A DNA stretch of 64,000 bases from Candidatus Doudnabacteria bacterium (GCA_041644975.1 JBAZQX010000007.1:1906-65905), one strand, 5' to 3'; positions 2,348-48,952 are shown, numbered from the stretch's first letter. The notes: a model not told the origin generated them from the sequence alone. Program-made: numbers and translations.

Positions 2348-2510
2348 GGTACTCCTTACTCCCCGTTATTTCTAAAGGGGGTAAATCCTTTATTTTTGAA
2401 ACGAATCATTTTTCGAAACTACAAATTACCAATTACTGAAATTTTTGCTAAAAAATTTCTGGTGCTCTATTCTAAAAATAGTTCGAACCCCAGTAGTAAA
2501 GCAGAGCTTA

Positions 2511-2849
2511 CTACGGGGCACGGCGCATTTCGCTCGCCTCGCTGAAGCTCCGGCGAAGCGGGCCGCCTGCTTGCCCGCTCACAAGCCTTGGCGACGGAGG
2601 GTGGTGGTGGCGAGAAGCCCCCAAAATTTGAGCGGCTTCCCCGCGATTCCAATATTCCTTTATGTATTCAGCGAGCACAGATATATTATCATCTACACCA
2701 TAAACTTTTCGCAGATGCTCTTTTTCCAACTTATGGTGACAAACATCATAAGCAGTATAATCAAAGCCAGATTCTCTTAGCTTATCAGCTATCATTGGAA
2801 ACATATCCAAATATCCATCTCTGGTATACCATGTAGTCTTATACATCAT
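2511..2849 (-). CDS. Hypothetical protein; C-terminal ~35 aa are translated from a GC-rich repeat
   Basis: The N-terminal 75 aa look protein-like. The tail ASRHHHPPSPRLVSGQAGGPLRR derives from repeat 2515-2625. Confidence 0.35.
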   Translation of the reverse strand: MMYKTTWYTRDGYLDMFPMIADKLRESGFDYTAYDVCHHKLEKEHLRKVYGVDDNISVLAEYIKEYWNRGEAAQILGASRHHHPPSPRLVSGQAGGPLRRSFSEASEMRRAP

Positions 2850-2986
2850 TAATCCTTTCCATAGGTTATTTTCGCCTACCTCTGATATACACTAACAATA
2901 ATTGCAATAGTTTTTTTCAACTCCGTAATGGCAGAAACAGTATTACTGACTTCTTGCCTTACTTGCATTATAAAAATATAATCATA

Positions 2987-4279: not shown

Positions 4280-5701
4280 TCATTTTTTGCCTTCCGGAAG
4301 TATGAAGTTTTTAATTATATTGAACATAAATTTAAGTTGATTTGAACGTATATGCCGCACGAAGTTGAAAAAATTAATGGGATTTAAATAGTAATAGATT
4401 AAAGCAAGTCTCTGTAAATTCTTTAAATCCTTGGCACTTAAATCCCCGGTTTCATACATTCCAGTATGGACTGTAAACCTGCTCCATTCCTTAATTGCTG
4501 AATTTGTTTTAATCCATTCATCATAGACTTCGCTTCCCGGAAATGGGCAAAGAATGTTAAATTGGGCAGTATGCAGCCCTGAGTTCCCAGCAAATTTTAT
4601 TGTTTGCATGACTGTTTTTTTTGTGTCTCCTGGAAAACCGATCATAAAGAAACCATGTGTGATTATGCCATGTTTTTTTATCATGGCTATCTTTTCCTTA
4701 ACTATTGAAAGATCGAGATTTTTTTTAGCTCTATTGAGGATATCTTGATTGCCTGATTCGATACCCAATGCTAAAAGATAGCAGCCCGATGCTTTCATTT
4801 TTGCTAAAAGCTCGTCATCAAGTTTGTCTATTCTCACCCCATTAGGACACTTCCAATCAATTTTTAATTTTCTTCTTATTATCTCATTACAAACCTCTAT
4901 TGTTTTTTCTTTTAACAATGTGAAATTATCGTCTTCAAAATGTATTTCTTTACAGCCATATTTTTTAACAAGAAGCTCGATTTCATCAACAATATTCTTA
5001 GCGCTTCTCTGTCTAAATTTATGGCGCCAGATTGCATTGGATGCACAAAAAGTGCAGAAATATGGGCAGCCTCTGGAACTCATTATCGGACCTACTGGAT
5101 GTGATTTTGTATAAATTCCATGAGGAGCAGGAGGATAAAAATTAGGGTTTATCTCTTCCCAATCTGGAAATGGCAGATAATCCAGGTTTTTTATTAATTC
5201 TCTTTTTTCGGTTAAGATTGTTTTTCCTTTCTTGTCTTTAAAACAAATGCCCTTAACTCTTTTAAAGTCAGTTTCGCCTTTTTCTAGTTTTTTAACAAGC
5301 TCTAGCACTGTTTCTTCCCCCTCCCCAACTATTATGAAGTCTACCCCTAACTCTGAAAGGGTTTCTTCCGGAATTGAGGTTGAGTGAGGTCCGCCAAGGC
5401 AAATTTTAGCTCTAGGAATAACTTTCCTAAGCATTCTTACAAGATTCTTAGCCTCTGGAATAAAGTCTGTTGTAGCATGAATTCCCACAAGATCTGGATT
5501 AAAACTTGAAATTTTTTTAACTGTTCCAGCCATTGAGAGGCGAGATTTCTGCAATGGGTCTACAATATGTGCGTTATAGCCCTCTTTTTTCATGTATGCA
5601 TTTAAATATCCTAAGCCTAGCAGCGGGGTTATAATGTAAGCATCATATGGCGGCCTACAGAACACTATGTTAAAATTATGCTGTGCATTATTTAAAGCCA
5701 T
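4280..5701 (-). CDS. B12-binding (class B) radical SAM protein
   Basis: An N-terminal cobalamin-binding-like domain followed by the SSRGCPYFCTFCAS radical SAM CxxxCxxC motif. Length 473 aa. Confidence 0.85.
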   Translation of the reverse strand: MALNNAQHNFNIVFCRPPYDAYIITPLLGLGYLNAYMKKEGYNAHIVDPLQKSRLSMAGTVKKISSFNPDLVGIHATTDFIPEAKNLVRMLRKVIPRAKICLGGPHSTSIPEETLSELGVDFIIVGEGEETVLELVKKLEKGETDFKRVKGICFKDKKGKTILTEKRELIKNLDYLPFPDWEEINPNFYPPAPHGIYTKSHPVGPIMSSRGCPYFCTFCASNAIWRHKFRQRSAKNIVDEIELLVKKYGCKEIHFEDDNFTLLKEKTIEVCNEIIRRKLKIDWKCPNGVRIDKLDDELLAKMKASGCYLLALGIESGNQDILNRAKKNLDLSIVKEKIAMIKKHGIITHGFFMIGFPGDTKKTVMQTIKFAGNSGLHTAQFNILCPFPGSEVYDEWIKTNSAIKEWSRFTVHTGMYETGDLSAKDLKNLQRLALIYYYLNPINFFNFVRHIRSNQLKFMFNIIKNFILPEGKK

Positions 5702-6123: not shown

Positions 6124-6273
6124 TCATTTTTGTCGCATAATATCTTTTAACAGAAGTATATGTGCGGGTTCTTGGGCGGCAAATTCTTTTAGCTCAACGA
6201 GTTGAGCTTCAATCGAAAGCACTTGTTGATCATCTTCCTCTGTAGATTTTCTTGCATAGATTAAGTATTTCAT
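6124..6273 (-). pseudogene. Truncated serine recombinase (resolvase/invertase N-terminal catalytic domain only, ~49 aa)
   Basis: MKYLIYARKSTEEDDQQVLSIEAQ matches the resolvase catalytic-serine motif (YxRxST..Q..SLxxQ). The ORF stops after ~49 aa. Confidence 0.5.
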
Positions 6274-6446
6274 ATTAATTTGATTAAAAAAATTCCTTTT
6301 CCCAGGACGAAACCGCTCATGGCTACGCCAGATCTTCAGACAACTGATTTTTTCGCCCAAAATCCCTTACAATTTAATCGCCGAGTCCGCCAATTCGGCG
6401 GATAAACTCCGCGAGGCGAACCCAAACTGCTTGCAAATTCCTTACT

Positions 6447-6466
6447 GGTGCCCGGGGCGGGACTCG
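6447..6466 (-). repeat. Partial duplicate of the tRNA-Leu 3' end (17 nt identical, followed by CCA): att-site-like direct repeat
   Basis: gtgcccggggcgggactcg here matches the tRNA-Leu 3' end at 6623-6640. In this copy the reverse complement ends ...CGAGTCCCGCCCCGGGCACCA. Confidence 0.55.
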
Positions 6467-6622
6467 CCCCGTCGCTAAAGCTCCTTGAAACCTTGCGGTT
6501 TCAATGCTTCCACATCGGGGAAACTACCGTTTCCCCGACCCCTTTCCCGGGTTCTCGTCCCTATTACTTTAAACCTTGTATTTTTGAAAAAAACAAACAG
6601 ACACAAAGCGATATCTTCTTTG

Positions 6623-6707
6623 TGCCCGGGGCGGGACTCGAACCCGCAAGGTCTCGCGACCACAAGATTTTAAGTCTTGCGTGTATACCAGTTCCACCAC
6701 CCGGGCA
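6623..6707 (-). tRNA. tRNA-Leu(TAA), class II with long variable arm
   Basis: The reverse complement folds as GCCCGGG acceptor, anticodon loop CTTAAAA, variable arm tggtcgcgagacc and T-arm GGGTTCGAGTCCC. CCA is not encoded. Confidence 0.85.
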
Positions 6708-6714
6708 AACCCTC

Positions 6715-6830
6715 CGTCGTTGCGAGGAGCGACCAAAAGGAGCGACGAAGCCCGCCCGCTCACAAGCTTCGCTTCAGGCGAGGCGGGCGGGCTTCGCTCG
6801 GGCTTTAAGGCCCGAGCTCGCAACGACAAA
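6715..6830. repeat. GC-rich palindromic repeat element (family B core CGCTTCAGGCGAGGCGGGCGGG inside a cgtcgttgcgagg...cctcgcaacgac inverted repeat)
   Basis: Inverted termini and a shared GC-rich core that recurs at six other sites in the window. Confidence 0.7.
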
Positions 6831-6867
6831 ATCATTTTGAGGCCAGGACGGGAATTGTCATGGCTTC

Positions 6868-6950
6868 GCCAGATCTGGCAGAGCCAGACACCCACGAATC
6901 ACGGTTTTGTCCCGCTACGCGGGATCTCGCGCAGCGAGACAGACCGTTAA
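6868..6950. repeat. Hairpin repeat (family D, TCCCGCTACGCGGGATCTCG) embedded in a partial duplicate of the tRNA-Cys anticodon/T-arm
   Basis: The minus strand reads ACGGTCTG[tctcgctgcgcgagatcccgcgtagcgggac]AAAACCGTGATTCGTGGGTG. This equals tRNA-Cys positions 27-53 with the hairpin inside the anticodon loop. Confidence 0.6.
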
Positions 6951-6957
6951 TCTTTTG

Positions 6958-7030
6958 AGGCCTAGGTGGGATTTGCACCCACGAATCACGGTTTTGCAGA
7001 CCGTTGCGTTAACTACTTCGCCACTAGGCC
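6958..7030 (-). tRNA. tRNA-Cys(GCA)
   Basis: GGCCTAG acceptor, anticodon loop CTGCAAA, T-arm GTGGGTGCAAATCCCAC. Length 73 nt. Confidence 0.85.
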
Positions 7031-15876: not shown

Positions 15877-16038
15877 TTGAATTACGAAATTAGAGCACAA
15901 GTAACCCACCCCCGCCCGCCTCGCCTGAAGCGAAGCTTGTGAGCGGGCAGGCCTTCCCTCCTCTTCAAGAGGCGAGGGGGCATTAATTCCCCCCTGACAA
16001 AGTGATTACATAATCTAATCGCACATTTCGTAATTCAA
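15877..16038. repeat. MITE-like element with GAATTACGAAAT / ATTTCGTAATTC terminal inverted repeats and a family B GC-rich core
   Basis: Termini at 15877-15890 and 16025-16038. The core is cccgcccgcctcgcctgaagcg. Confidence 0.7.
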
Positions 16039-18424: not shown

Positions 18425-18525
18425 GGTTCAATTCTCCCTGCCCACTCAAGCGCTTCGCCCGCCCGCAACGACTGCGTCTTGCGCTGTCGGGCGAGGCTTC
18501 AGGCGAGGCGGGCGGGTTGAATTGA
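18425..18525. repeat. Family B GC-rich repeat copy
   Basis: gcttcgcccgcccgcaacg...gcttcaggcgaggcgggcggg. Confidence 0.6.
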
Positions 18526-36295: not shown

Positions 36296-36550
36296 AATTT
36301 TGAATTACCTTAACATATCGTCATTGCGAGGGAGGCACCTTAGTGCCGACCAAAGCCCGCCCGCCTCGCCTGAAGCCGCGCCCGCCATGCTAGCCGCAAG
36401 GCGTTGCGGGCGGGCGAAGCGATGGCGGGCAGGCAATCTCATAAATCTGTATAAATACAGCTCGATGAGATTGCGGAGCCTGTCCCGAGCGGAAGCGAGG
36501 GATCGGGCTTGACGCCCTCCTCGCAATGACAAAATGAATATCGAAAATTA
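36296..36550. repeat. Composite MITE-like element: family A termini (CGTCATTGCGAGG...CCTCGCAATGAC) enclosing a family B GC-rich module
   Basis: The ORFs called inside it on both strands (36300-36512 and 36305-36532) are repeat artefacts. Confidence 0.75.
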
Positions 36551-37476: not shown

Positions 37477-38493
37477 CTAAGAAATCTCCATCATGTTTTT
37501 CTGAAAATCTTCTAAATTCATACCTATCAAACGTTTGAAAATTTCACGATAACGTCTTGTTGTATAGACAATGACTTCCTCTGGCACTTGGACATTGCCG
37601 ACAAAAGCAACGTGTTCGGAATTTTCAGGATCAAGATTGTTAATCCCCTGACCCCAAGGCGTCTCAATTGTCTTCCCCCACTGGCGCACGGGTTCTTTGT
37701 CATAACCCGATGGCGCTTCTCCTCTTTGAGCGGCATCCTGCCACTCTGTTTTATCCCAAAACCGGGAAGAGTCTGGAGTCAAAACCTCATCAGCGAGCGT
37801 TAAAGGATGGTCTTTACTTAATCTGCCAAATTCAAACTTGGTATCGGCGATGATAACGCTCTTCCCCCGGGTATAAGCCGCGCATTGCTCATAGATCTTC
37901 AAGGACAGATCTTCTAACTTGGGACCATATTTTTGACTTACATCTCTGGCAGTAAGGGGCTTATCGTGCCCTGATTCTGCTTTGGTAGTGGGCGTGAATA
38001 ATGGTTGCGGCAACATGGATCCATCATGAAGAAACGGGCCTGGCTTATAACCATAAACCGAGCCATCTTTTTGATAAGATTTCCAGGCTCCCCCCGTGAG
38101 GTATCCCCTTACCACACATTCCACTGGCTCCATATTCAGTCGCCGGACTATAATACTCCGCGCTTGTAACTCGGCATTATTACGCAATTCTCCTATGCGA
38201 GGGAGGTAATAATCAATACCTTTGCCATAAGCTACTAAATGATGTTTAATGCCTTTCAGTATTTGGGTTAACCAAAATACAGTCAACCCCGTCAGGATTG
38301 CGCCCTTTTGGGGAACCAGGCAATTAAGCACAAAATCGAAAATACTCACTCTATCAGTGGCGACCACCAAAAGATAATTGGGTAGTCTATATGTATCCCG
38401 CACTTTACCTTGATAGACCTCACTAAACCCTTCATCTTCTAAAAGACGACTCAAACCGGTTTCTCTAACCGCTTCCGGAATTTTTGCGCTCAT
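37477..38493 (-). CDS. purC: Phosphoribosylaminoimidazole-succinocarboxamide synthase (long form)
   Basis: KVRDTY..., DTKFEFG, SAICAR synthetase motifs. Confidence 0.9.
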   Translation of the reverse strand: MSAKIPEAVRETGLSRLLEDEGFSEVYQGKVRDTYRLPNYLLVVATDRVSIFDFVLNCLVPQKGAILTGLTVFWLTQILKGIKHHLVAYGKGIDYYLPRIGELRNNAELQARSIIVRRLNMEPVECVVRGYLTGGAWKSYQKDGSVYGYKPGPFLHDGSMLPQPLFTPTTKAESGHDKPLTARDVSQKYGPKLEDLSLKIYEQCAAYTRGKSVIIADTKFEFGRLSKDHPLTLADEVLTPDSSRFWDKTEWQDAAQRGEAPSGYDKEPVRQWGKTIETPWGQGINNLDPENSEHVAFVGNVQVPEEVIVYTTRRYREIFKRLIGMNLEDFQKNMMEIS

Positions 38494-38525
38494 TTTCTAC
38501 TCCTTTCCAAATTGCTTTCTATGTT

Positions 38526-39953
38526 TCACATTTCCTTAACTTTTTGCTCTGCGAGCAGAGCTATCTCCAATGCTTTTTCTTGAGCATCCCCAGTATATTC
38601 TTCCGGATAATGGAGAAGCTGCCAAATGTCGTCCGGAATCCTCTGCACCACTTCACCTAAAGTTTCGTCTTGTTCAGCGAGCTTTTCAAGCGCGTCAAGT
38701 AAACTAATCTTTTCTTCAGTAGCGAGCGGCACTAACTTTCTGTTCACAAGCTCGTGAGCATCCTCTATATAACCTGCCATTTGCAAGGCAATATAAAGGG
38801 GCTCGGCCAAGACAAGGTCAGCGCTTGCGTCAAAGTTGCGTTGACATGCTTCCTCGTCTATCCTTATCTTCTCTAAAAAAGAGATTGCGTTCTCGTCTTT
38901 TCTTAGTAGTGTATTAAGCTGGTGCATTACATTGATAAGGATAATGGGAAAATCTCTAGCCACTGAACTGCCAACTAAATCCCGCTGGTGCTCACTGATT
39001 AATGTGTCCAGCACCTTGCCGAATTCATTTTTAGTTCTGATCCACATTCCCACTAGGTTTTCAAAATTGATGGGATTTCTTTTTTGCGCCATTGTAGAAG
39101 AGCCAACCGCTCCTGCCGCATAAAACTCAATTACCTCTGCGATTTCGCTCCGCATCAGATTGCGGCAATCTTGACCGAACTGCGCTAGGCTAGCCGATAG
39201 CATACAGAGTGAGAATAGAAAATACCCCAGGGGTTCGGGCGGTAAAATCTGCGTGCTGATCGGCGCCGCCTTCAAGTCCAATTTTTCTAAAACCCTTTGT
39301 TCAAAGCTTCTGTCACCGCAAAGTTTGGCAAACCCTAAACCTATTTGAGCATTATGCGCACCAACCGCTCCACCAATCTTCCCGCATAATCCCTTTGAGT
39401 AAAGCTCCACTTGACTGGCATTATAAATAACGCGGTATAAAGTGGTAGCGAGCCAAAAACCCACCGTAATCGGTAAGGCATGTTGGCCATGAGTGCGGCC
39501 GATCTGGATCTGATCCGCGAATTGGCGCACCAGCTTCGCGAAGATACTCATCAACTCTTGAATGGACGGCTTAAGGGCAAAGCAATAGGCGCGGTGAAAC
39601 TGGAGCATACGCCCAGTGTCCAAAGGATCATAACTCGTGAGCGGAATATGCACCCATCTGGCTAAACGCTCTCCAATAATTTCTTGCGCTATTCTAACCC
39701 AAGCTCGGATGTCGTGATGCGTGATTTCCCTCTCCACCTTATCTACTTCAGTCGTTGGAATATTCAAAACCGCTTCAATGATTTCAGGAGTTAATTCCTC
39801 CATTTCTTCCGGAGGGATAACCCCAATCTCTCCTAAAACTTGTAGGGTCGCGAGTTCTACTTCAGCCACAGTTTTATAGAGATTATCATAACCAAAATAC
39901 GGTATAAGCTGTTTCGGCTGGTAACGCGGATTGCCTGGCATTATTAAATTCAT
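38526..39953 (-). CDS. purB: Adenylosuccinate lyase
   Basis: HGQHALPITVGFW and fumarate-lyase family signature. Length 475 aa. Confidence 0.9.
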   Translation of the reverse strand: MNLIMPGNPRYQPKQLIPYFGYDNLYKTVAEVELATLQVLGEIGVIPPEEMEELTPEIIEAVLNIPTTEVDKVEREITHHDIRAWVRIAQEIIGERLARWVHIPLTSYDPLDTGRMLQFHRAYCFALKPSIQELMSIFAKLVRQFADQIQIGRTHGQHALPITVGFWLATTLYRVIYNASQVELYSKGLCGKIGGAVGAHNAQIGLGFAKLCGDRSFEQRVLEKLDLKAAPISTQILPPEPLGYFLFSLCMLSASLAQFGQDCRNLMRSEIAEVIEFYAAGAVGSSTMAQKRNPINFENLVGMWIRTKNEFGKVLDTLISEHQRDLVGSSVARDFPIILINVMHQLNTLLRKDENAISFLEKIRIDEEACQRNFDASADLVLAEPLYIALQMAGYIEDAHELVNRKLVPLATEEKISLLDALEKLAEQDETLGEVVQRIPDDIWQLLHYPEEYTGDAQEKALEIALLAEQKVKEM

Positions 39954-41465: not shown

Positions 41466-41620
41466 TTTTTTACCCCCTTTCTACAGTGTTTGGTTTTCGA
41501 GGTACAAATTGAGTCAAGCACCAGCTTGACCCTCCTCTATCGTATGATACAACAAAACAAGGAAAAAGCAAGATTAAAAACAAAAAACAGTCCGCCTTTG
41601 GCGAGACTACAACGAATAGC

Positions 41621-41640
41621 ATGAAAAAATTTTCTTTTAC
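41621..41640 (+). repeat. 20-bp direct repeat ATGAAAAAATTTTCTTTTAC, left copy flanking purD
   Basis: Exact second copy at 43227-43246. Confidence 0.7.
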
Positions 41641-41840
41641 AAGATGTGATTTGAGCCGATATTTTTATCAGGTTCTTTGGCAGTTTTTTACCTCTTGAAA
41701 AGAGGCAATAATTTCAAGTTTTTTATGAGTTAATCATAACTCATTACAGTAAATTCCTCAAGAAAAATGAGCTTGAAAAATTCACTGCTTTGGCGGCAAA
41801 TTCTTTTCGGAAAATAAAGGGGGTTCAATCCCCGAAGGAA

Positions 41841-43169
41841 TTAGAACCCCATAGCAATGGCTTTAGCACCAATATCTTTTCGATACTGCATGCCCTTGAA
41901 CTTAATTTGGTGAACTGCTTCGTACGCCCGATCAAGAGCTTCTTGAAGAGTTTTACCGACTGCTGTGACTCCGAGAACGCGTCCGCCAGAAGTCCGAAGT
42001 TGGTCGCTACACATTGTGCCAGCGTGGAAAACGACAATGCCCGGGACTTTCTCTGCTTCGCTGATTCCAAATATCGGAATTCCCTTTTTGTACTTTCCCG
42101 GATATCCACCAGAAGCAAGAACAACGCAAACGGCGAAACCGAAATTCCATTCAACTGCAAGGTCGGCGAGTTTGCCGTCAACGCATGCGTCTAAAACATC
42201 AAGCAAATCTGTTTTTAGGAGTCGCATGTAGCTTTGCGTTTCGGGGTCGCCGAATCTTGCGTTGAATTCAAGCACTTTCGGCCCCTCGTCTGTCATCTTG
42301 AGTCCGGGGTACAAACAGCCAGTAAACGGCTTTCCTTTCTTCGCAAGCGCTTGCAAAGTCGGACGAACGATTTGCTCGTTTACTTCTCGCAAGGTCTGAT
42401 CCGTAACCCACGGCACAGGTGCGATTGTCCCCATACCGCCAGTATTCTTGCCCTTATCGCCGTCGAAAATCGGCTTGTGGTCTTGCGCGGTAGGTAATAG
42501 GATTGAGGTTTTGCCGTCACAGAGAGCGTGAATAGAAACCTCTTGTCCATTCAGAAACTCCTCGACGATAACTTCATTGCCTGCTTGTTTGTAAGCGTGC
42601 TCAAGCATGATTTCTGCCAGAGCTTTCACGGCTTTAGCAAGCGTCTTACAGGGATATGCGCCTTTGCCAAGAGCCAATCCGCTTGCTTTCACGACAATCG
42701 GCGCCCCATGTTTGCGGACATATTCTAAAGCACTTTCATACTTTCGAAATATCCGAAATGGCGCAGTCGGGATATCACTATCGTGCATAAGTCGTTTGGC
42801 AAACGCTTTAGACGCTTCAATCTGTGCTGCGGCACGAGTGGGTCCGAAAATGCGTAAGCCATGAGATTGAAAAACATCAACTATACCAAGCGCAAGCGGG
42901 TCGTCAGGACCGACTACTGTCAGATGAATTGAATTCTTTTCAGCAAAACGATCCAAACCTCTGGCGTCTGTGGCTTCAATCGCAATATTTTCAGCAATAT
43001 CACAAGTGCCGCCATTTCCAGGTGCAACATACAACTTGCCAATGCGTGATGATTGAGCGAGTTTCCATGCGAGCGCATGCTCTCTTCCGCCACCACCGAT
43101 AATTAAGACATTGCTGATCATAGTTTTCTCTCCTTTCTTGCTAATGTGCAGTTTATCTATTTTAGCCAT
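41841..43169 (-). CDS. purD: Phosphoribosylamine--glycine ligase; likely true start at the internal Met (MISNVLIIGGGGREHA, ~43121)
   Basis: GGGGREHA, ATP-grasp domain. By eye the GC content is higher than in neighbouring genes. Confidence 0.9.
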   Translation of the reverse strand: MAKIDKLHISKKGEKTMISNVLIIGGGGREHALAWKLAQSSRIGKLYVAPGNGGTCDIAENIAIEATDARGLDRFAEKNSIHLTVVGPDDPLALGIVDVFQSHGLRIFGPTRAAAQIEASKAFAKRLMHDSDIPTAPFRIFRKYESALEYVRKHGAPIVVKASGLALGKGAYPCKTLAKAVKALAEIMLEHAYKQAGNEVIVEEFLNGQEVSIHALCDGKTSILLPTAQDHKPIFDGDKGKNTGGMGTIAPVPWVTDQTLREVNEQIVRPTLQALAKKGKPFTGCLYPGLKMTDEGPKVLEFNARFGDPETQSYMRLLKTDLLDVLDACVDGKLADLAVEWNFGFAVCVVLASGGYPGKYKKGIPIFGISEAEKVPGIVVFHAGTMCSDQLRTSGGRVLGVTAVGKTLQEALDRAYEAVHQIKFKGMQYRKDIGAKAIAMGF

Positions 43170-43226
43170 ATCTATCTAAAATATAGCTCAAAAATAAAAA
43201 AACCGAAACTAAATTCGGAATCAGAT

Positions 43227-43246
43227 ATGAAAAAATTTTCTTTTAC
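43227..43246 (+). repeat. 20-bp direct repeat ATGAAAAAATTTTCTTTTAC, right copy flanking purD
   Basis: Identical to 41621-41640. Confidence 0.7.
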
Positions 43247-43319
43247 TTTGAATTCAATTCAAAAAACGAAACCGCCGATTGATTTTTTAGGCCAACCCGC
43301 CTGCTCACAAGCCTGTGCC

Positions 43320-43418
43320 CCTGAGAAGAATCGAACTTCTATCTAGGGCTTAGGCCCTGCACCAGAGCAAAGCTCGGTACAGGGTAAAAGTCCCTTGTTC
43401 CCCGCCCGCCTGACTCGT
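43320..43418 (-). pseudogene. Degenerate tRNA-like sequence, partial duplicate of tRNA-Arg
   Basis: The minus strand has CAGGGCCTAAGCCCTAGATAGAAGTTCGATTCTTCTCAGGGGCA with a shortened anticodon loop (relative to tRNA-Arg) and an unpaired 5' acceptor. Confidence 0.3.
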
Positions 43419-43419
43419 C

Positions 43420-43494
43420 TGGTGCCCTCATCTGGAATCGGACCAGAATCTAGGGCTTAGGAGTCCCTTGTTCTATCCATTGAACTATGAGGGC
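43420..43494 (-). tRNA. tRNA-Arg(CCT), CCA encoded
   Basis: GCCCTCA/TGAGGGC acceptor, A73, anticodon loop CTCCTAA, T-arm TCTGGTCCGATTCCAGA. Confidence 0.85.
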
Positions 43495-43652
43495 GTCAGG
43501 CGAGTCGGGCGGGTATCCGCTTAAGCTACAGGGGCAAAAACAAATTAAAAATAAAAAATTTAAAATTACAAATATATACAAATTATATTCTTTAATTCAT
43601 TGCTTGTAAATTTTTCTGATGCTAGAATGAGTGGAATTACTAAAAATAGAAA

Positions 43653-45149
43653 ATGAAAATTAAGATTAAAAATAGCATCACTTTTTTAAAATATTTTTTC
43701 TTTTTTCTTTTTGTCTTCTCTATCCCCTTTCAGAAACGGCATATTTTTTCTGATTACCCTATTGCGGGAGAATTTAATGAATGGACGGCAATCAGTATTT
43801 ATGTTTCAGATATTCTTTTATTCTTAAGTTTGATCTTTTGGCTTGGCGAACTTGTTATTTCTAGAAATCATTTAAGATTACGGAATATTATAACCCCTCT
43901 TAATCTCCCCTTGTCAGGGGAGAAATATACCCCCCTGATAAGGGGGGTTAGGGGGGTTTTAAATTATTTCCGTGAGGGCATACTAAATCTTAAAAAGAAA
44001 AATAAATTATTGATTATTGGTTACTGGCTGCTGGTTACCCTGCTCGCCATTGCTTTTTTTTCCTTAATTAATGCCCAAAATTTAAACATTGCCCTCTTCC
44101 GTCTATTAAAATTAGGGGAGGTAATTCTCTTATTTATTTTTGTTGTCTTCAACTTTGGCTCAAAAAAATTACGGCTACTTTTGTATTTATTTTTACTGAC
44201 TAGCGGAATAGTTCAAGGAATGATCGCAGTAGGACAGTATTTTCACCAGCATTCTCTGGGTCTCAAAATTTTAGGCGAGAATGATCTTGCCCCTAACATA
44301 ATTGGCGTGGCAAAGATAGTCGTCAACGGCGACAAAATCATCCGTGCTTACGGCGCCTTCCCCCACCCCAACATTTTAGGCGGCTTTTCAATCGCCGCTA
44401 TTTTATTTTGTTTTTACCTATGGACCAAAATACCAAAGGTAAAATGGGACAAATCTCTAAAAATCATCCTCCTTATCATTCTTTCTCTCTTTACCATCAC
44501 CATCACCATCACCTTTTCCCGCACGGCTTGGCTAGGACTCATCATCGCTTTATTGGGCTTGCTCATCATTAACCTCCACAAAATCAAAAACTACGTTCCC
44601 GTTTTCGGCGTGATTATTATCACCGCTTTGATTCTATTTTATTTCCTCCAGCCCCAAATTTTAACTCGCCAAACGATTAGTGATTCTTCAGGGGATTTCG
44701 CTCTCACAAACCGCGCGTTTTTAAACCAAATTGCCTTGCTCATAATTGCCAAACACCCTCTTTTAGGGGTCGGAATAGGTAATTTCGTGCCTAGCATCCC
44801 TGACTTTACCCCGTTAGATAGTAAACATCTAACGGGGTTTACTAAAATGAACCTTCCTGCTTGGCGCTATCAGCCAAGCCACAATCTCTATTTGGCTATG
44901 GCTTCAGAGACAGGTCTCCCTAGTTTATTGATCTTTCTAACCTTTTTATACTTAACCATTGCTCACGCTCTCGGGCAGATTCGGAACGACCCTGAAATCG
45001 GAATTCTGTTTTGGATTTTAATTGCTTACCTCTTTATTAGCTGCTTGGACCACTACTTTTATGATCTCCAACAAGGAATCCTATTATTTTGGCTTATCTT
45101 GGGGATAATTTGGGTAATTATTTTACAAAAATCTAAAAATGTTGCATAA
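43653..45149 (+). CDS. O-antigen ligase / O-antigen polymerase family membrane protein carrying an in-frame family C repeat insertion
   Basis: Multi-TM protein with the SHNLYLAMASETGLPSLLIF ligase motif. Codons for ITPLNLPLSGEKYTPLIRGVRGV are encoded by the repeat at 43890-43960. Confidence 0.75.
   Translation: MKIKIKNSITFLKYFFFFLFVFSIPFQKRHIFSDYPIAGEFNEWTAISIYVSDILLFLSLIFWLGELVISRNHLRLRNIITPLNLPLSGEKYTPLIRGVRGVLNYFREGILNLKKKNKLLIIGYWLLVTLLAIAFFSLINAQNLNIALFRLLKLGEVILLFIFVVFNFGSKKLRLLLYLFLLTSGIVQGMIAVGQYFHQHSLGLKILGENDLAPNIIGVAKIVVNGDKIIRAYGAFPHPNILGGFSIAAILFCFYLWTKIPKVKWDKSLKIILLIILSLFTITITITFSRTAWLGLIIALLGLLIINLHKIKNYVPVFGVIIITALILFYFLQPQILTRQTISDSSGDFALTNRAFLNQIALLIIAKHPLLGVGIGNFVPSIPDFTPLDSKHLTGFTKMNLPAWRYQPSHNLYLAMASETGLPSLLIFLTFLYLTIAHALGQIRNDPEIGILFWILIAYLFISCLDHYFYDLQQGILLFWLILGIIWVIILQKSKNVA
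43890..43960. repeat. Family C palindromic element (AACCCCTCTTAATCTCCCCTTGTCAGGGGAG...CCCCCCTGATAAGGGGGGTTAGGGGGG) inside the ligase CDS
   Basis: Near-identical motif at 37250, 45528 and 47398. Confidence 0.75.
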
Positions 45150-45305: not shown

Positions 45306-45600
45306 AAAAATGTTCCACGTGGAACATTTTTAATTTCCTTAAATTACGAAACTCCCTCCCCTTGCCTCCCGCGGAGTAATCTAACTCCCTCCCTGACAAG
45401 GGAGGGGAAGGCCTGCCCGCCATCGCTTCGCCTGCCCGCAACGCCTTGCGGCTAGCATGGCGGGCGTGGCTTCAGGCGAGGCGGGCGGGGGAGGGTTAAA
45501 AGGATTTATTCTCTCTCTTACCTGAATTAAACCCCTCTCTAATCTCCCCTTGTCAGGGGAGAAGTTTACCCTCCTCTAGGTAAGGGGGAATATATTGGAA
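45306..45600. repeat. Left flanking composite repeat of the TrmB cassette: 16-bp palindrome TGTTCCACGTGGAACA, then a MITE-like element with ATTACGAAACTCCC terminus, CTCCCTCCCTGACAAGGGAGGG and family C modules, and a nested family B insertion (45415-45495)
   Basis: Direct-repeat partner at 47285-47551. The nested GC-rich segment is absent from the partner. Confidence 0.7.
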
Positions 45601-48744: not shown

Positions 48745-48952
48745 GTACCTTAACATTTTGTCATTGCGAGGAGGGCTTATAGTCAGATCCCTCGCTTCCG
48801 CTCGGGACAGGCTCCGCAATCTCATCGAGCTGTTATTCATACAGATTTAGGAGATTGCCTGCCCGCCATCGCTTCGCTTCAGGCGAGGCGGGCGGGCTTC
48901 GGTCGGCATTAGATGCCTCCCTCGCAATGACGATACATTTCGTAATTCAAGG
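48745..48952. repeat. Composite family A element (GTCATTGCGAGGAGGGC...CCTCGCAATGACGATACATTTCGTAATTCAAGG) with a nested family B core
   Basis: More than 90% identical over ~100 nt to the copies at 55858-55990 and 63590-63730. Confidence 0.75.

Follow-up and report, generated by a model that had tools for sequence, protein, structure and literature searches.

The DNA studied here is a stretch of 64,000 nucleotides (64 kb; hereafter the window, with coordinates counted from its first letter) from a Candidatus Doudnabacteria bacterium, a member of the candidate phyla radiation (CPR). Two neighboring features of the window are described: purD, the gene for phosphoribosylamine-glycine ligase, which lies between two exact copies of a 20-bp sequence, and a complete tRNA-Arg gene that sits inside the remains of another tRNA-Arg gene, an arrangement referred to as a nest. 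A total of 101 related contigs and loci pulled from public data (L001, L002 and so on; L001 is GCA_030646565.1 and L002 is GCA_041643135.1) were used together with the window. The module that contains purD is shared with other CPR genomes and circularly permuted in some of them, the 20-mer recurs as a junction, and the divergence of purD is far below that of housekeeping genes. We lean, with little better than even confidence, to the view that purD is a mobile cassette within the CPR and that the nest is a separate, self-replacing tRNA-Arg cassette.

The purD module and its distribution

The purD gene (41841-43121) encodes a protein of 426 amino acids identified by Pfam and TIGR00877 and lies on the minus strand, as do all other features of the module and of the adjacent tRNA cluster. 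The GARS_N (PF02844), GARS_A ATP-grasp (PF01071) and GARS_C (PF02843) domains all exceed their cut-offs, the TIGR00877 score of 527 bits (cut-off 288) is at equivalog level, and a ribosome-binding site (RBS) is present before the gene. PurD homologues form a smooth gradient between 97% and about 70% identity, and every homologue with a taxon name belongs to the CPR (Nealson-, Sung-, Ryan- and Wildermuthbacteria, Parcubacteria, Patescibacteria). The nearest PurD from outside the CPR (Bacteroidota, Ignavibacteria, Chlorobi, Micrarchaeota) is about 50% identical. The gene is a genuine CPR-type purD. It lies in a window with bacterial markers: NusA with its N-terminal domain, trigger factor, IF-2, GyrA and an M23/LysM peptidase. 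The purine-pathway genes seen in the 64-kb window are purC, purB and purD only (37477-39953 and 41841-43121). An exact PurB is found in the protein database, attributed by its source to a Candidatus Doudnabacteria metagenome, but the top PurD match is 97% identical and the window's own PurD is apparently absent there.

A first-pass annotation of the window had described purD as GC-richer than its neighbors and had proposed GC and codon usage as a check of foreign origin. The GC content of purD is indeed high (0.486, rank 2 of 44 window genes, z=1.45), but the excess is confined to codon positions 1 and 2 (0.509), and 1-kb stretches elsewhere in the window also attain 0.49-0.50. Compared with the other window genes, the third-position GC (GC3) of 0.438 (z=-0.04) and the codon-usage distance (z=-0.05) are average, and therefore the composition gives no evidence of foreign origin. 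The atypical composition or codon usage expected of a transferred gene is not seen in purD.

Exact copies of the 20-mer ATGAAAAAATTTTCTTTTAC (GTAAAAGAAAATTTTTTCAT when read on the purD strand) stand at 41621-41640 and 43227-43246, as first reported. No third copy was found in the window with up to three mismatches allowed, and two copies occurred in none of 100 shuffles. The pair does enclose purD, but not purD only, as had been stated: about 220 nt holding the relic of a serine recombinase are enclosed as well. On the purD strand the order in 41621-43246 is 20-mer, terminator, leader, purD, terminator, recombinase relic, 20-mer. In the module numbering used below, position 1 is 43246, purD occupies 126-1406, the relic about 1457-1582, and the unit ends at 1606.

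Copy A of the 20-mer (43227-43246) is the left end of the conserved module; when the upstream regions are aligned, similarity among eight loci starts exactly there. Its 5' side is joined to a recombinase upstream region, "Pup" (43247-43290), with the palindrome aaaaaatcaatcggcggtttcg...TTGAATTGAATTCAA, which is matched in L001 and L008 before recombinase relics and in L005 and L011 before purD. An intrinsic-terminator-like hairpin with a T run, 8 nt past copy A (43203-43218; terminator scan, kept in eight loci), probably ends the tRNA transcript. The purD leader (43122-43202), conserved in an alignment of 13 loci, has TATATT as its candidate -10 element, which is TATAAT in relatives, and aaaggagag as the RBS. 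It would hold the purD promoter; a promoter scan near the leader gave just one weak 9/12 site (43144->43117), overlapping the purD start. Another hairpin with a T run stands right behind the purD stop (41812-41838); it was read from the sequence, is kept in L001 and L005, and was not reported by the terminator scan. Beyond it lie codons ~28-52 of the recombinase relic (41670-41803, reading ..EFAAK, a 64-nt insert and KLEIIASFQEVKTAKEP), recognized by homology to the L001 and L008 relics, and then a junction segment reading DKNIGSNHIL* (41641-41669). The same block is found in L001, L006, L008 and L010, always between a truncated recombinase relic and a 20-mer copy. Copy B (41621-41640) is the right module end, where similarity to the close relative L005 stops, and 16 nt past it the terminator scan found one more hairpin with a T run (41592-41604). 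Since both 20-mers are trailed within 8-16 nt by terminator-like hairpins, the module consists of terminator, leader, purD and terminator-like hairpin, which suggests that it can be expressed on its own.

The 64-nt insert in the relic, cagtgaatttttcaagctcatttttcttgaggaatttactgtaatgagttatgattaactcata (41724-41787), splits it between codons AAK and EKL. It is also found in L001 and therefore predates the split between the two module arrangements described next.

The purD module recurs in at least 11 other CPR contigs at 78-96% nucleotide identity and with unrelated flanks, and the stretch that related contigs share with the window by blastn is a unit of about 1.6 kb only. In an all-against-all blastn of 13 loci, nearly every pair had no sizeable DNA in common beyond the module (1.3-1.7 kb, 75-93% nucleotide identity); exceptions were the left flank common to the window and L005, the dprA-topA...tRNA-Leu(CAA) segment common to L001 and L004, and short repeat-like fragments of L001-type loci. 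Homology breaks off sharply at the module ends in at least five different contexts. The order in the window is 1-1606 followed by the second 20-mer. The alignments of L001, L006, L008 and L010 are instead continuous from about 1524/1559 to 1606, into 1 and on to 1537. This uninterrupted run across the 20-mer means that the unit is circularly permuted in these four loci, with the 20-mer as the junction. In most loci purD is the first gene past a tRNA. The tRNA directly upstream is Arg-CCT in the window (Arg in L005), Leu-CAA in L001 and L004, Tyr in L002, Leu-GAG in L011 and Leu-TAG in L015; in L012 its 3' end alone is present, at the contig start.

Between the window and L005, its closest relative, PurD is 97% and the neighboring Wzy-like protein 90% identical, and the right flanks are unrelated beyond copy B. 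When the flanks of the other purD loci were searched for orthologues of window genes, only one doubtful 49% match appeared, and the comparison of divergence was therefore based on GyrA, PurB and the TopA pair of L001 and L004. The PurD database matches comprise 10 clusters at 90% identity or more and about 50 at 80% or more. The matches of PurB from the same contig stand at 100%, 86% and then 70% or less, and GyrA has seven clusters at 79% or more and then none above 63%. In the syntenic pair L001/L004, TopA is 50% and PurD 86% identical. When purD of the window is compared with that of the other loci, 4-fold degenerate sites show an identity of 0.55-0.90, where chance gives 0.26. It is 0.60 in a pair whose TopA is merely 50% identical, and 0.63 between the window and L012, a Wildermuthbacteria metagenome-assembled genome (MAG) with PurD 88% identical in amino acids and 85% in nucleotides. 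Wildermuthbacteria and Doudnabacteria are listed as different candidate phyla at NCBI. The 4-fold sites are held too well for purifying selection, and the purD allele seems to have passed among divergent CPR lineages. The gene combines discordant divergence with unrelated flanks, and it appears to have been exchanged horizontally within the CPR, with another CPR bacterium as the likely donor. The early proposal of an inserted, horizontally acquired purD survives to this extent, in the shared module, the unrelated flanks and the low synonymous divergence; a non-CPR donor and a recent compositional import find no support.

Two types of left neighbor of the 20-mer can be distinguished. One is the conserved segment aaaaaatcaRtYggcgg... 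(window, L005, L011); the other is a truncated serine-recombinase open reading frame (ORF) plus about 30 nt (L001, L006, L008, L010 and copy B of the window). In L008 the 20-mer lies between the conserved upstream segment and the recombinase start codon, about 30 nt before the ATG. The recombinase sequence includes MKYIIYVRKSTEEDDRQVLSIEAQLVELKEF..., the truncation point of the relics is constant, after ...TAKEP, and the L001 relic matches the Pfam Resolvase domain (PF00239, E=4e-7). Read on the purD strand, the 20-mer is therefore a piece of the recombinase gene's 5' region. It had been interpreted as the duplicated start, MKKFSFT, of a disrupted host gene; this interpretation fails, the sequence being a conserved recombinase upstream piece at the left end of the purD leader. 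The MKKFSFT frame can be read, but it lies on the strand opposite to the purD and tRNA genes, and from the second copy it continues into the tRNA cluster. Since copy A has kept its link to the upstream region and copy B adjoins the truncated recombinase ORF, purD lies between two partial copies of one recombinase-element segment.

Other remnants were observed. At 6150-6475 of the window (minus strand) there is a duplicate of a tRNA-Leu 3' end, GGGGCGAGTCCCGCCCCGGGCACCA, about 150 nt downstream of tRNA-Leu(TAA) at 6622-6706; the DNA behind it matches L001 in its post-tRNA sequence and recombinase upstream region and then holds another N-terminal relic of a serine recombinase, MKYLIYARKSTEEDDQQVLSIEAQLVELKEFAAQE (Resolvase, E=4e-4). 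Compared with L001, this region has an extra 24-nt hairpin insert, tctgaagatctggcgtagccatga. In the region 2460-2850 (minus strand), the ORF 2511-2849 ends in a helix-turn-helix (HTH)-like motif, ...NRGEAAQILG, and a GC-rich insert of about 125 nt with a stop codon separates it from its continuation, VRTIFRIEHQ...; at the same site L001 has a 33-nt in-frame insert. In L001, L006, L007, L008, L010 and L011 the purD module is joined at its right end to the 3' part of this HTH gene. In L008, inverted copies of its 3' fragment, about 100 nt long and about 90% identical (4728-4826 and 6424-6524), flank the module, and the recombinase relic with its upstream region stands inverted beside the fragment. 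This arrangement suggests a past inversion.

tRNA-Arg genes nested in the D-loop of tRNA-Arg

The tRNA-Arg(CCT) that had been noted beside purD is confirmed at 43420-43494, with an encoded CCA, by ARAGORN and by Rfam (tRNA, 61.7 bits). The inverted GC-rich motifs reported around it are also present. They form a left palindrome arm, CCCGCCCGACTCGCCTGAC (43495-43513), which is the same or nearly the same in most of the 25 tRNA-carrying nests described below, and a right arm, GACGAGTCAGGCGGGCGGG (43401-43419), delimited from the sequence and the comparison of nests. The degenerate tRNA-Arg duplicate reported next to the intact gene exists too, but it is split around that gene: its 5' piece had been missed and its 3' part covers 43316-43400. 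The 5' piece, GCCCCTGTAGCTTAAGCGGATA (43514-43535; sequence reading and reconstruction), comprises the acceptor 5' strand and the D-arm to position 21. Past the right arm follow positions 22-33, GAACAAGGGACT (43389-43400; reconstruction), then a 34-nt hairpin insert in the anticodon loop (43355-43388; sequence reading), and finally the part from the anticodon CCT to the 3' end, CCTAAGCCCTAGATAGAAGTTCGATTCTTCTCAGGGGCA (43316-43354; Rfam and reconstruction). The 9-bp stem of the hairpin insert is preserved in L005 through a compensatory C-G to T-A change. A fragment of the palindrome family resembling the right arm, GGCTTGTGAGCAGGCGGG (43296-43313; family search), lies past the outer tRNA. Upstream of the outer 5' piece the promoter scan found an 11/12 site, TTTACA-17-TATAAT (43582-43610), which probably drives the whole nest.

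As it stands, the degenerate tRNA gives a sub-threshold Rfam match (20.1 bits at 43316-43368). Its 5' and 3' pieces, however, pair as a perfect 7-bp acceptor stem, and when both inserts are removed in silico ARAGORN calls the outer gene tRNA-Arg(CCT). The unit of about 113 nt (arm, tRNA-Arg(CCT), arm) is inserted exactly between D-loop positions 21 and 22, between GGATA and GAAC. There is no target-site duplication, and the two sides rejoin to an uninterrupted D-arm (the tRNA-Arg D-arm DNA sequence is TCAAYGGATAGARC). Judged by its sequence, the degenerate tRNA is an older tRNA-Arg gene with a second, complete tRNA-Arg between palindrome arms inserted into it; the inner gene would be the working copy and the outer one decaying. 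The intron options of ARAGORN (-i, -io, -ps) detected the inner tRNA alone in 43200-43620, and an Rfam E-value scan of 43100-43700 gave only the tRNA and chance matches, with no intron family. For annotation this means that standard tRNA finders detect the inner gene only.

In L005 the same locus is nested three deep, with the roles reversed. The intact L005 gene corresponds in its acceptor and T arm to the outer relic of the window, whose 3' part (43316-43354) is 97.7% identical to that of the L005 gene, and the window's inner type is left only as a 3' relic. Perfect pairing of the L005 5' piece is with yet another 3' relic, the third, which lies further downstream. An attempt to derive the tRNA clusters of the window and L005 from one ancestor by deletions alone did not succeed.

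A metagenome scan with the pattern GGATA-CCCGCCCG...CGGGCGGG-GA returned 29 loci. These together with the window and L005, after removal of three duplicate sequences, make 29 unique nests, 27 of them independent of the window and L005. In 25 of the 29 a complete tRNA-Arg (CCT, TCT, CCG, TCG or GCG) is enclosed, always within another tRNA-Arg. Under a strict position rule 19 nests have the same anticodon in the inner and outer gene, inspection by eye adds four more, and none disagree; two hosts are too decayed for the comparison. The outer gene becomes an intact cloverleaf after in-silico removal of the insert in 11-13 hosts. The remaining outer genes have mutated stems, lost 3' parts or added hairpin insertions, some of these right after position 37. 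Nine clean cases gave as their consensus structure a double cloverleaf with a 15-bp helix at the junction, in which the outer stems span the insert and covary. L081 and L082 have the inner and outer tRNA types swapped, as do the window and L005, and L075 and L090 have an orthologous host with different inner genes. In three loci the palindrome has no tRNA, and in each of them an intact tRNA-Arg of the same anticodon lies close by.

The tRNA copy and inverted motifs had been regarded as footprints of purD integration. The 27 other nests argue otherwise, since purD is found near none of them. Clustering of the ORFs within 3 kb of the nests gave no universal neighbor; a GIY-YIG nuclease gene appeared in two groups only. 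In L078 (2930-3500; Pfam PF01541, E=5e-12) and L092 (3636-4151) it lies between the interrupted and the intact tRNA-Arg. A similar ORF, by sequence resemblance only, follows the nest in L086, L088 (738-1435, beside the tRNA-Arg genes) and L093. These GIY-YIG proteins are candidates for an enzyme targeting the tRNA-Arg D-arm. The literature searched, which covers the field incompletely, contained no description of the nest or of the arm sequences; the arrangement is apparently undescribed, and its novelty is provisional.

The arms of the nest belong to a GC-rich palindrome family dispersed in the intergenic DNA of the window, which is 42% GC. The family consensus is CCCGCCCGCCTCGCCTGAAGC...GCTTGTGAGCGGGCGGG, and CCCGCCCG occurs 15 times in the window against 1.5 expected. 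A family search located copies at 6750-6792, 15910-15953, 18458-18516, 36355-36414, 45467-45490, 48877-48897 and 61902/62264. Terminal inverted repeats and dispersed copies are features of miniature inverted-repeat transposable elements (MITEs) and repetitive extragenic palindromic (REP)-like sequences, and both are present here; a target-site duplication is absent. The palindromes may act as terminators, as mobile hairpins, or as both.

A short intergenic member without a tRNA was seen in L101 (predicted viral contig IMGVR_UViG_3300033145_001804, 5860-5925), the one match of a scan of viral contigs with the palindrome arm. Direct repeats of 9 bp, CCGTTGAAC, stand on its two sides; they correspond in reverse complement to GTTCAACGG of the tRNA-Arg D-arm. 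Elsewhere in the window, tRNA-Cys (6957-7030, in the region 6850-7030, minus strand) has its 3' two-thirds repeated in degenerate form 10 nt further on, AACGGTCTG...CAAAACCGTGATTCGTGGGTG...CGTCCTGGCC, broken by the small GC-rich hairpin inserts tctcgctgcgcgagatcccgcgtagcggga and tctggctctgccagatctggcgaagccatgacaattcc.

Proposed mechanisms and alternative explanations

In the proposed scheme purD spreads as a cassette from one candidate phylum of the CPR to another. Direct repeats that remain from a decayed recombinase element beside tRNA genes would allow excision and Campbell-type re-insertion of a circle, the junction expected at the emptied site being ...gaattcaaaGTAAAAGAAAATTTTTTCATgctattcgttg; alternatively, the repeats could have arisen by duplication followed by deletion. 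Independently of purD, a self-replacing tRNA-Arg cassette would repeatedly invade tRNA-Arg genes at an Arg-specific point of the D-loop. It would survive by restoring the function that it destroys and would use the promoter of the host gene. The constant presence of one intact copy, the fixed insertion point, the lack of duplication, the near-invariant arms and the reciprocal and multi-level nests all fit repeated invasion. A GGAUA D-loop is typical of tRNA-Arg, A20 being an identity element for its synthetase, ArgRS; this could explain the specificity of the cassette, though the search pattern itself required GGATA. Taken on its own, a cassette homing into tRNA-Arg D-loops, which would be an undescribed class of mobile element, is a tentative proposal to which we give slightly less than even chances.

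Several observations weigh against this scheme. No full-length recombinase was found by tblastn with the N-terminus in the 101 loci and the window, the relics being at most 52 codons long. No empty site was recovered among the relatives, L005 also carrying the module, and no circular junction was observed; the route of purD movement therefore stays conjectural. The permutation could equally stem from an ancestral tandem duplication followed by lineage-specific deletions. Purifying selection explains part of the PurD conservation, though not the 4-fold sites, and the dprA-topA...tRNA-Leu(CAA)-purD order common to L001 and L004 means that some of the tRNA-purD adjacency is vertical. The taxon names of the MAGs are the labels of their depositors. 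As for the nests, the GGATA in the scan pattern biased the search towards tRNA-Arg, and a GIY-YIG gene is adjacent in just 5 of 29 loci and not in the window. Many outer genes look intact, which also fits a spliced or tolerated insert. The match of cargo to host anticodon could possibly come about through selection, gene conversion or homing at orthologous loci.

Other explanations of the purD locus have to be considered. The model of the first-pass annotation was that of a recent acquisition of purD from outside the CPR, as an island at tRNA-Arg with the 20-mers as attL and attR and the partial tRNA as an att duplicate. The exact 20-bp repeats, the tRNA with a partial copy adjoining the locus, the recombinase relic inside the repeats and the GC rank of purD speak for it. 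But the non-CPR PurD sequences reach about 50% at best against a CPR gradient of 97% to 70%, GC3 and codon usage are average, and the MKKFSFT frame is antisense to a conserved purD leader. Moreover the 20-mer, about 70 nt beyond the tRNA cluster, contains no tRNA sequence, the region is not bounded by a 3' tRNA duplicate, and the partial tRNA wraps the intact one, in the same arrangement as in the 27 independent loci that lack purD. Already contradicted in its donor and att parts, this model is scarcely credible. A simpler account holds that purD is vertical, non-mobile and very conserved, the 20-mer being a regulatory motif that happens to occur twice and the permutation the outcome of an old tandem duplication with differing deletions. 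Terminators do stand behind both 20-mers, similar motifs precede other genes in L001 and L007, the L001 and L004 neighborhoods are shared, there is no compositional anomaly, and neither an empty site nor an intact recombinase has been found. The vertical account does not accommodate a 4-fold identity of 0.55-0.63 across candidate phyla, or of 0.60 where TopA is 50% identical. Nor does it accommodate the roughly 50 PurD clusters at 80% or more, set against seven of GyrA at 79% or more and two of PurB from the same genome, or the sharp end of homology in at least five contexts. It is unlikely, though not far-fetched.

The nests could also be by-products of local duplication, in which hairpin-induced template switching or unequal recombination at palindromes copies part of the resident tRNA gene and no cassette moves. 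The shared anticodons, the long identical central segments of inner and outer genes (window, L005, L083, L084, L091, L098), the plentiful palindromes in intergenic DNA and the lack of a consistently adjacent transposase or nuclease fit this idea. Yet the acceptor and T arms of the inner genes are usually very unlike those of the outer ones (L073, L075, L090), the outer genes of L075 and L090 are orthologous with unrelated inner genes, the arms are near-identical over five isoacceptors and many samples, the insertion point is constantly 21/22, and reciprocal nests in sister genomes are hard to obtain in this way. Local duplication is distinctly unlikely. A different possibility is a bacterial tRNA intron or split tRNA. 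The outer tRNA-Arg would be expressed, the arms would pair, RNase P and RNase Z would free the inner tRNA, and the outer halves would then be joined or tethered by the helix, one promoter giving two tRNA-Arg. Several features look as such an intron would: the predicted double cloverleaf with its 15-bp helix, outer acceptor and D stems that are complementary across the insert in 11-13 loci and covary, the precise position without target duplication, the single promoter upstream of the outer 5' piece, and the palindromic inserts that several outer genes carry right behind position 37, where tRNA introns canonically sit (L079 and L099; by eye also L072 and L081). Against them stands the decay of about half of the outer genes, with mutated stems, a lost 3' part or extra hairpins in the 5' half, while 25 of 29 nests have an intact inner gene and the other four an intact tRNA-Arg of the same anticodon nearby. 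Covariation would be expected just as well if every host was an intact tRNA before invasion. Manual pairing of the arms gave helices of 8+6 or 7+6 bp with a single 4-5-nt bulge, and a bulge-helix-bulge motif could not be drawn at the junctions of either insert. The organism is bacterial, and no bacterial enzyme is known for tRNA splicing of this type. The intron or split-gene explanation is very unlikely.

CPR bacteria have minimal genomes and patchy nucleotide synthesis. A ready-to-express purine-gene cassette circulating between candidate phyla would be one way in which such genomes patch their metabolism, and whether a CPR MAG has or lacks a pathway gene can then reflect mobile cassettes rather than lineage history. 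The nest, recurrent, precise and so far limited to one tRNA identity, would, if a selfish element, target an essential RNA gene while carrying its replacement. It would provide a simple route of tRNA gene turnover and a source of the fragmented tRNA relics around CPR tRNA loci. If it were an intron, it would be the bacterial counterpart of archaeal split tRNAs and the first protein-dependent, archaeal-style tRNA gene fragmentation in Bacteria.

Comparison with known systems

The purD module resembles tRNA-lodged islands and serine-recombinase cassettes such as SCCmec/Ccr in its position next to a tRNA, the recombinase relic inside, the direct-repeat ends, the variable context and the metabolic cargo. 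It differs in that only 18-52 recombinase codons survive, the repeat is the recombinase's own upstream region and not tRNA sequence, and the cargo is a single 1.3-kb gene. Neither the window nor any of the related loci has an intact integrase or recombinase in the element. The end repeats do not contain a tRNA 3' part, and no additional 13-mer matches to the upstream tRNA were found in L001, L002, L004, L011 and L015. The permutation junctions differ by lineage, unlike those at a fixed att core, which fits homologous recombination at relic repeats better. Integron cassettes are likewise single-gene units, and a circular intermediate would be expected to give the circular permutation seen in the unit of about 1.6 kb. 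The purD module, however, has no attC-like palindrome, IntI tyrosine integrase, attI site or array, and has its own terminators and leader; the sole recombinase trace is a serine-type Resolvase domain.

Archaeal split tRNAs are found in Nanoarchaeum equitans, and Caldivirga has a tri-split tRNA. The nest is like these in its non-canonical break, in GC-rich complementary sequences at the junction and in a second insert in the anticodon loop. Unlike these, it is bacterial and lacks a bulge-helix-bulge, the intervening tRNA is of the same identity, and the outer gene is often degenerate. Small palindromic repeats of Bacteria include REP sequences and bacterial interspersed mosaic elements (BIMEs), Correia elements and Rickettsia palindromic elements. 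As with these, many intergenic GC-rich inverted repeats occur in an AT-rich genome, some inside RNA genes and one in an ORF. The nest copy differs from them in carrying a tRNA gene between its arms, at one fixed tRNA position and without target-site duplication.

The proposed logic of the nest is that of homing, in which a naive allele is cut and a resistant or replacement allele is copied in. Free-standing homing endonucleases, such as MobE of phage T4, are reported to spread by gene conversion with flanking DNA (PMC2988022, PMC2790892), and SegB offers a further comparison (PMC13096335). Unlike these, most nests, including that of the window, have no nearby nuclease gene, and the inner tRNA retains the presumed target. 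Interrupted tRNA genes also occur in the same phylum: Patescibacteria tRNAs are reported to contain group I introns, which are ribozymes, in the anticodon loop at 33/34-36/37 (PMC13011429). The nest insert, set beside these introns, has no Rfam intron match, measures about 113 nt, lies in the D-loop at 21/22 and contains a tRNA.

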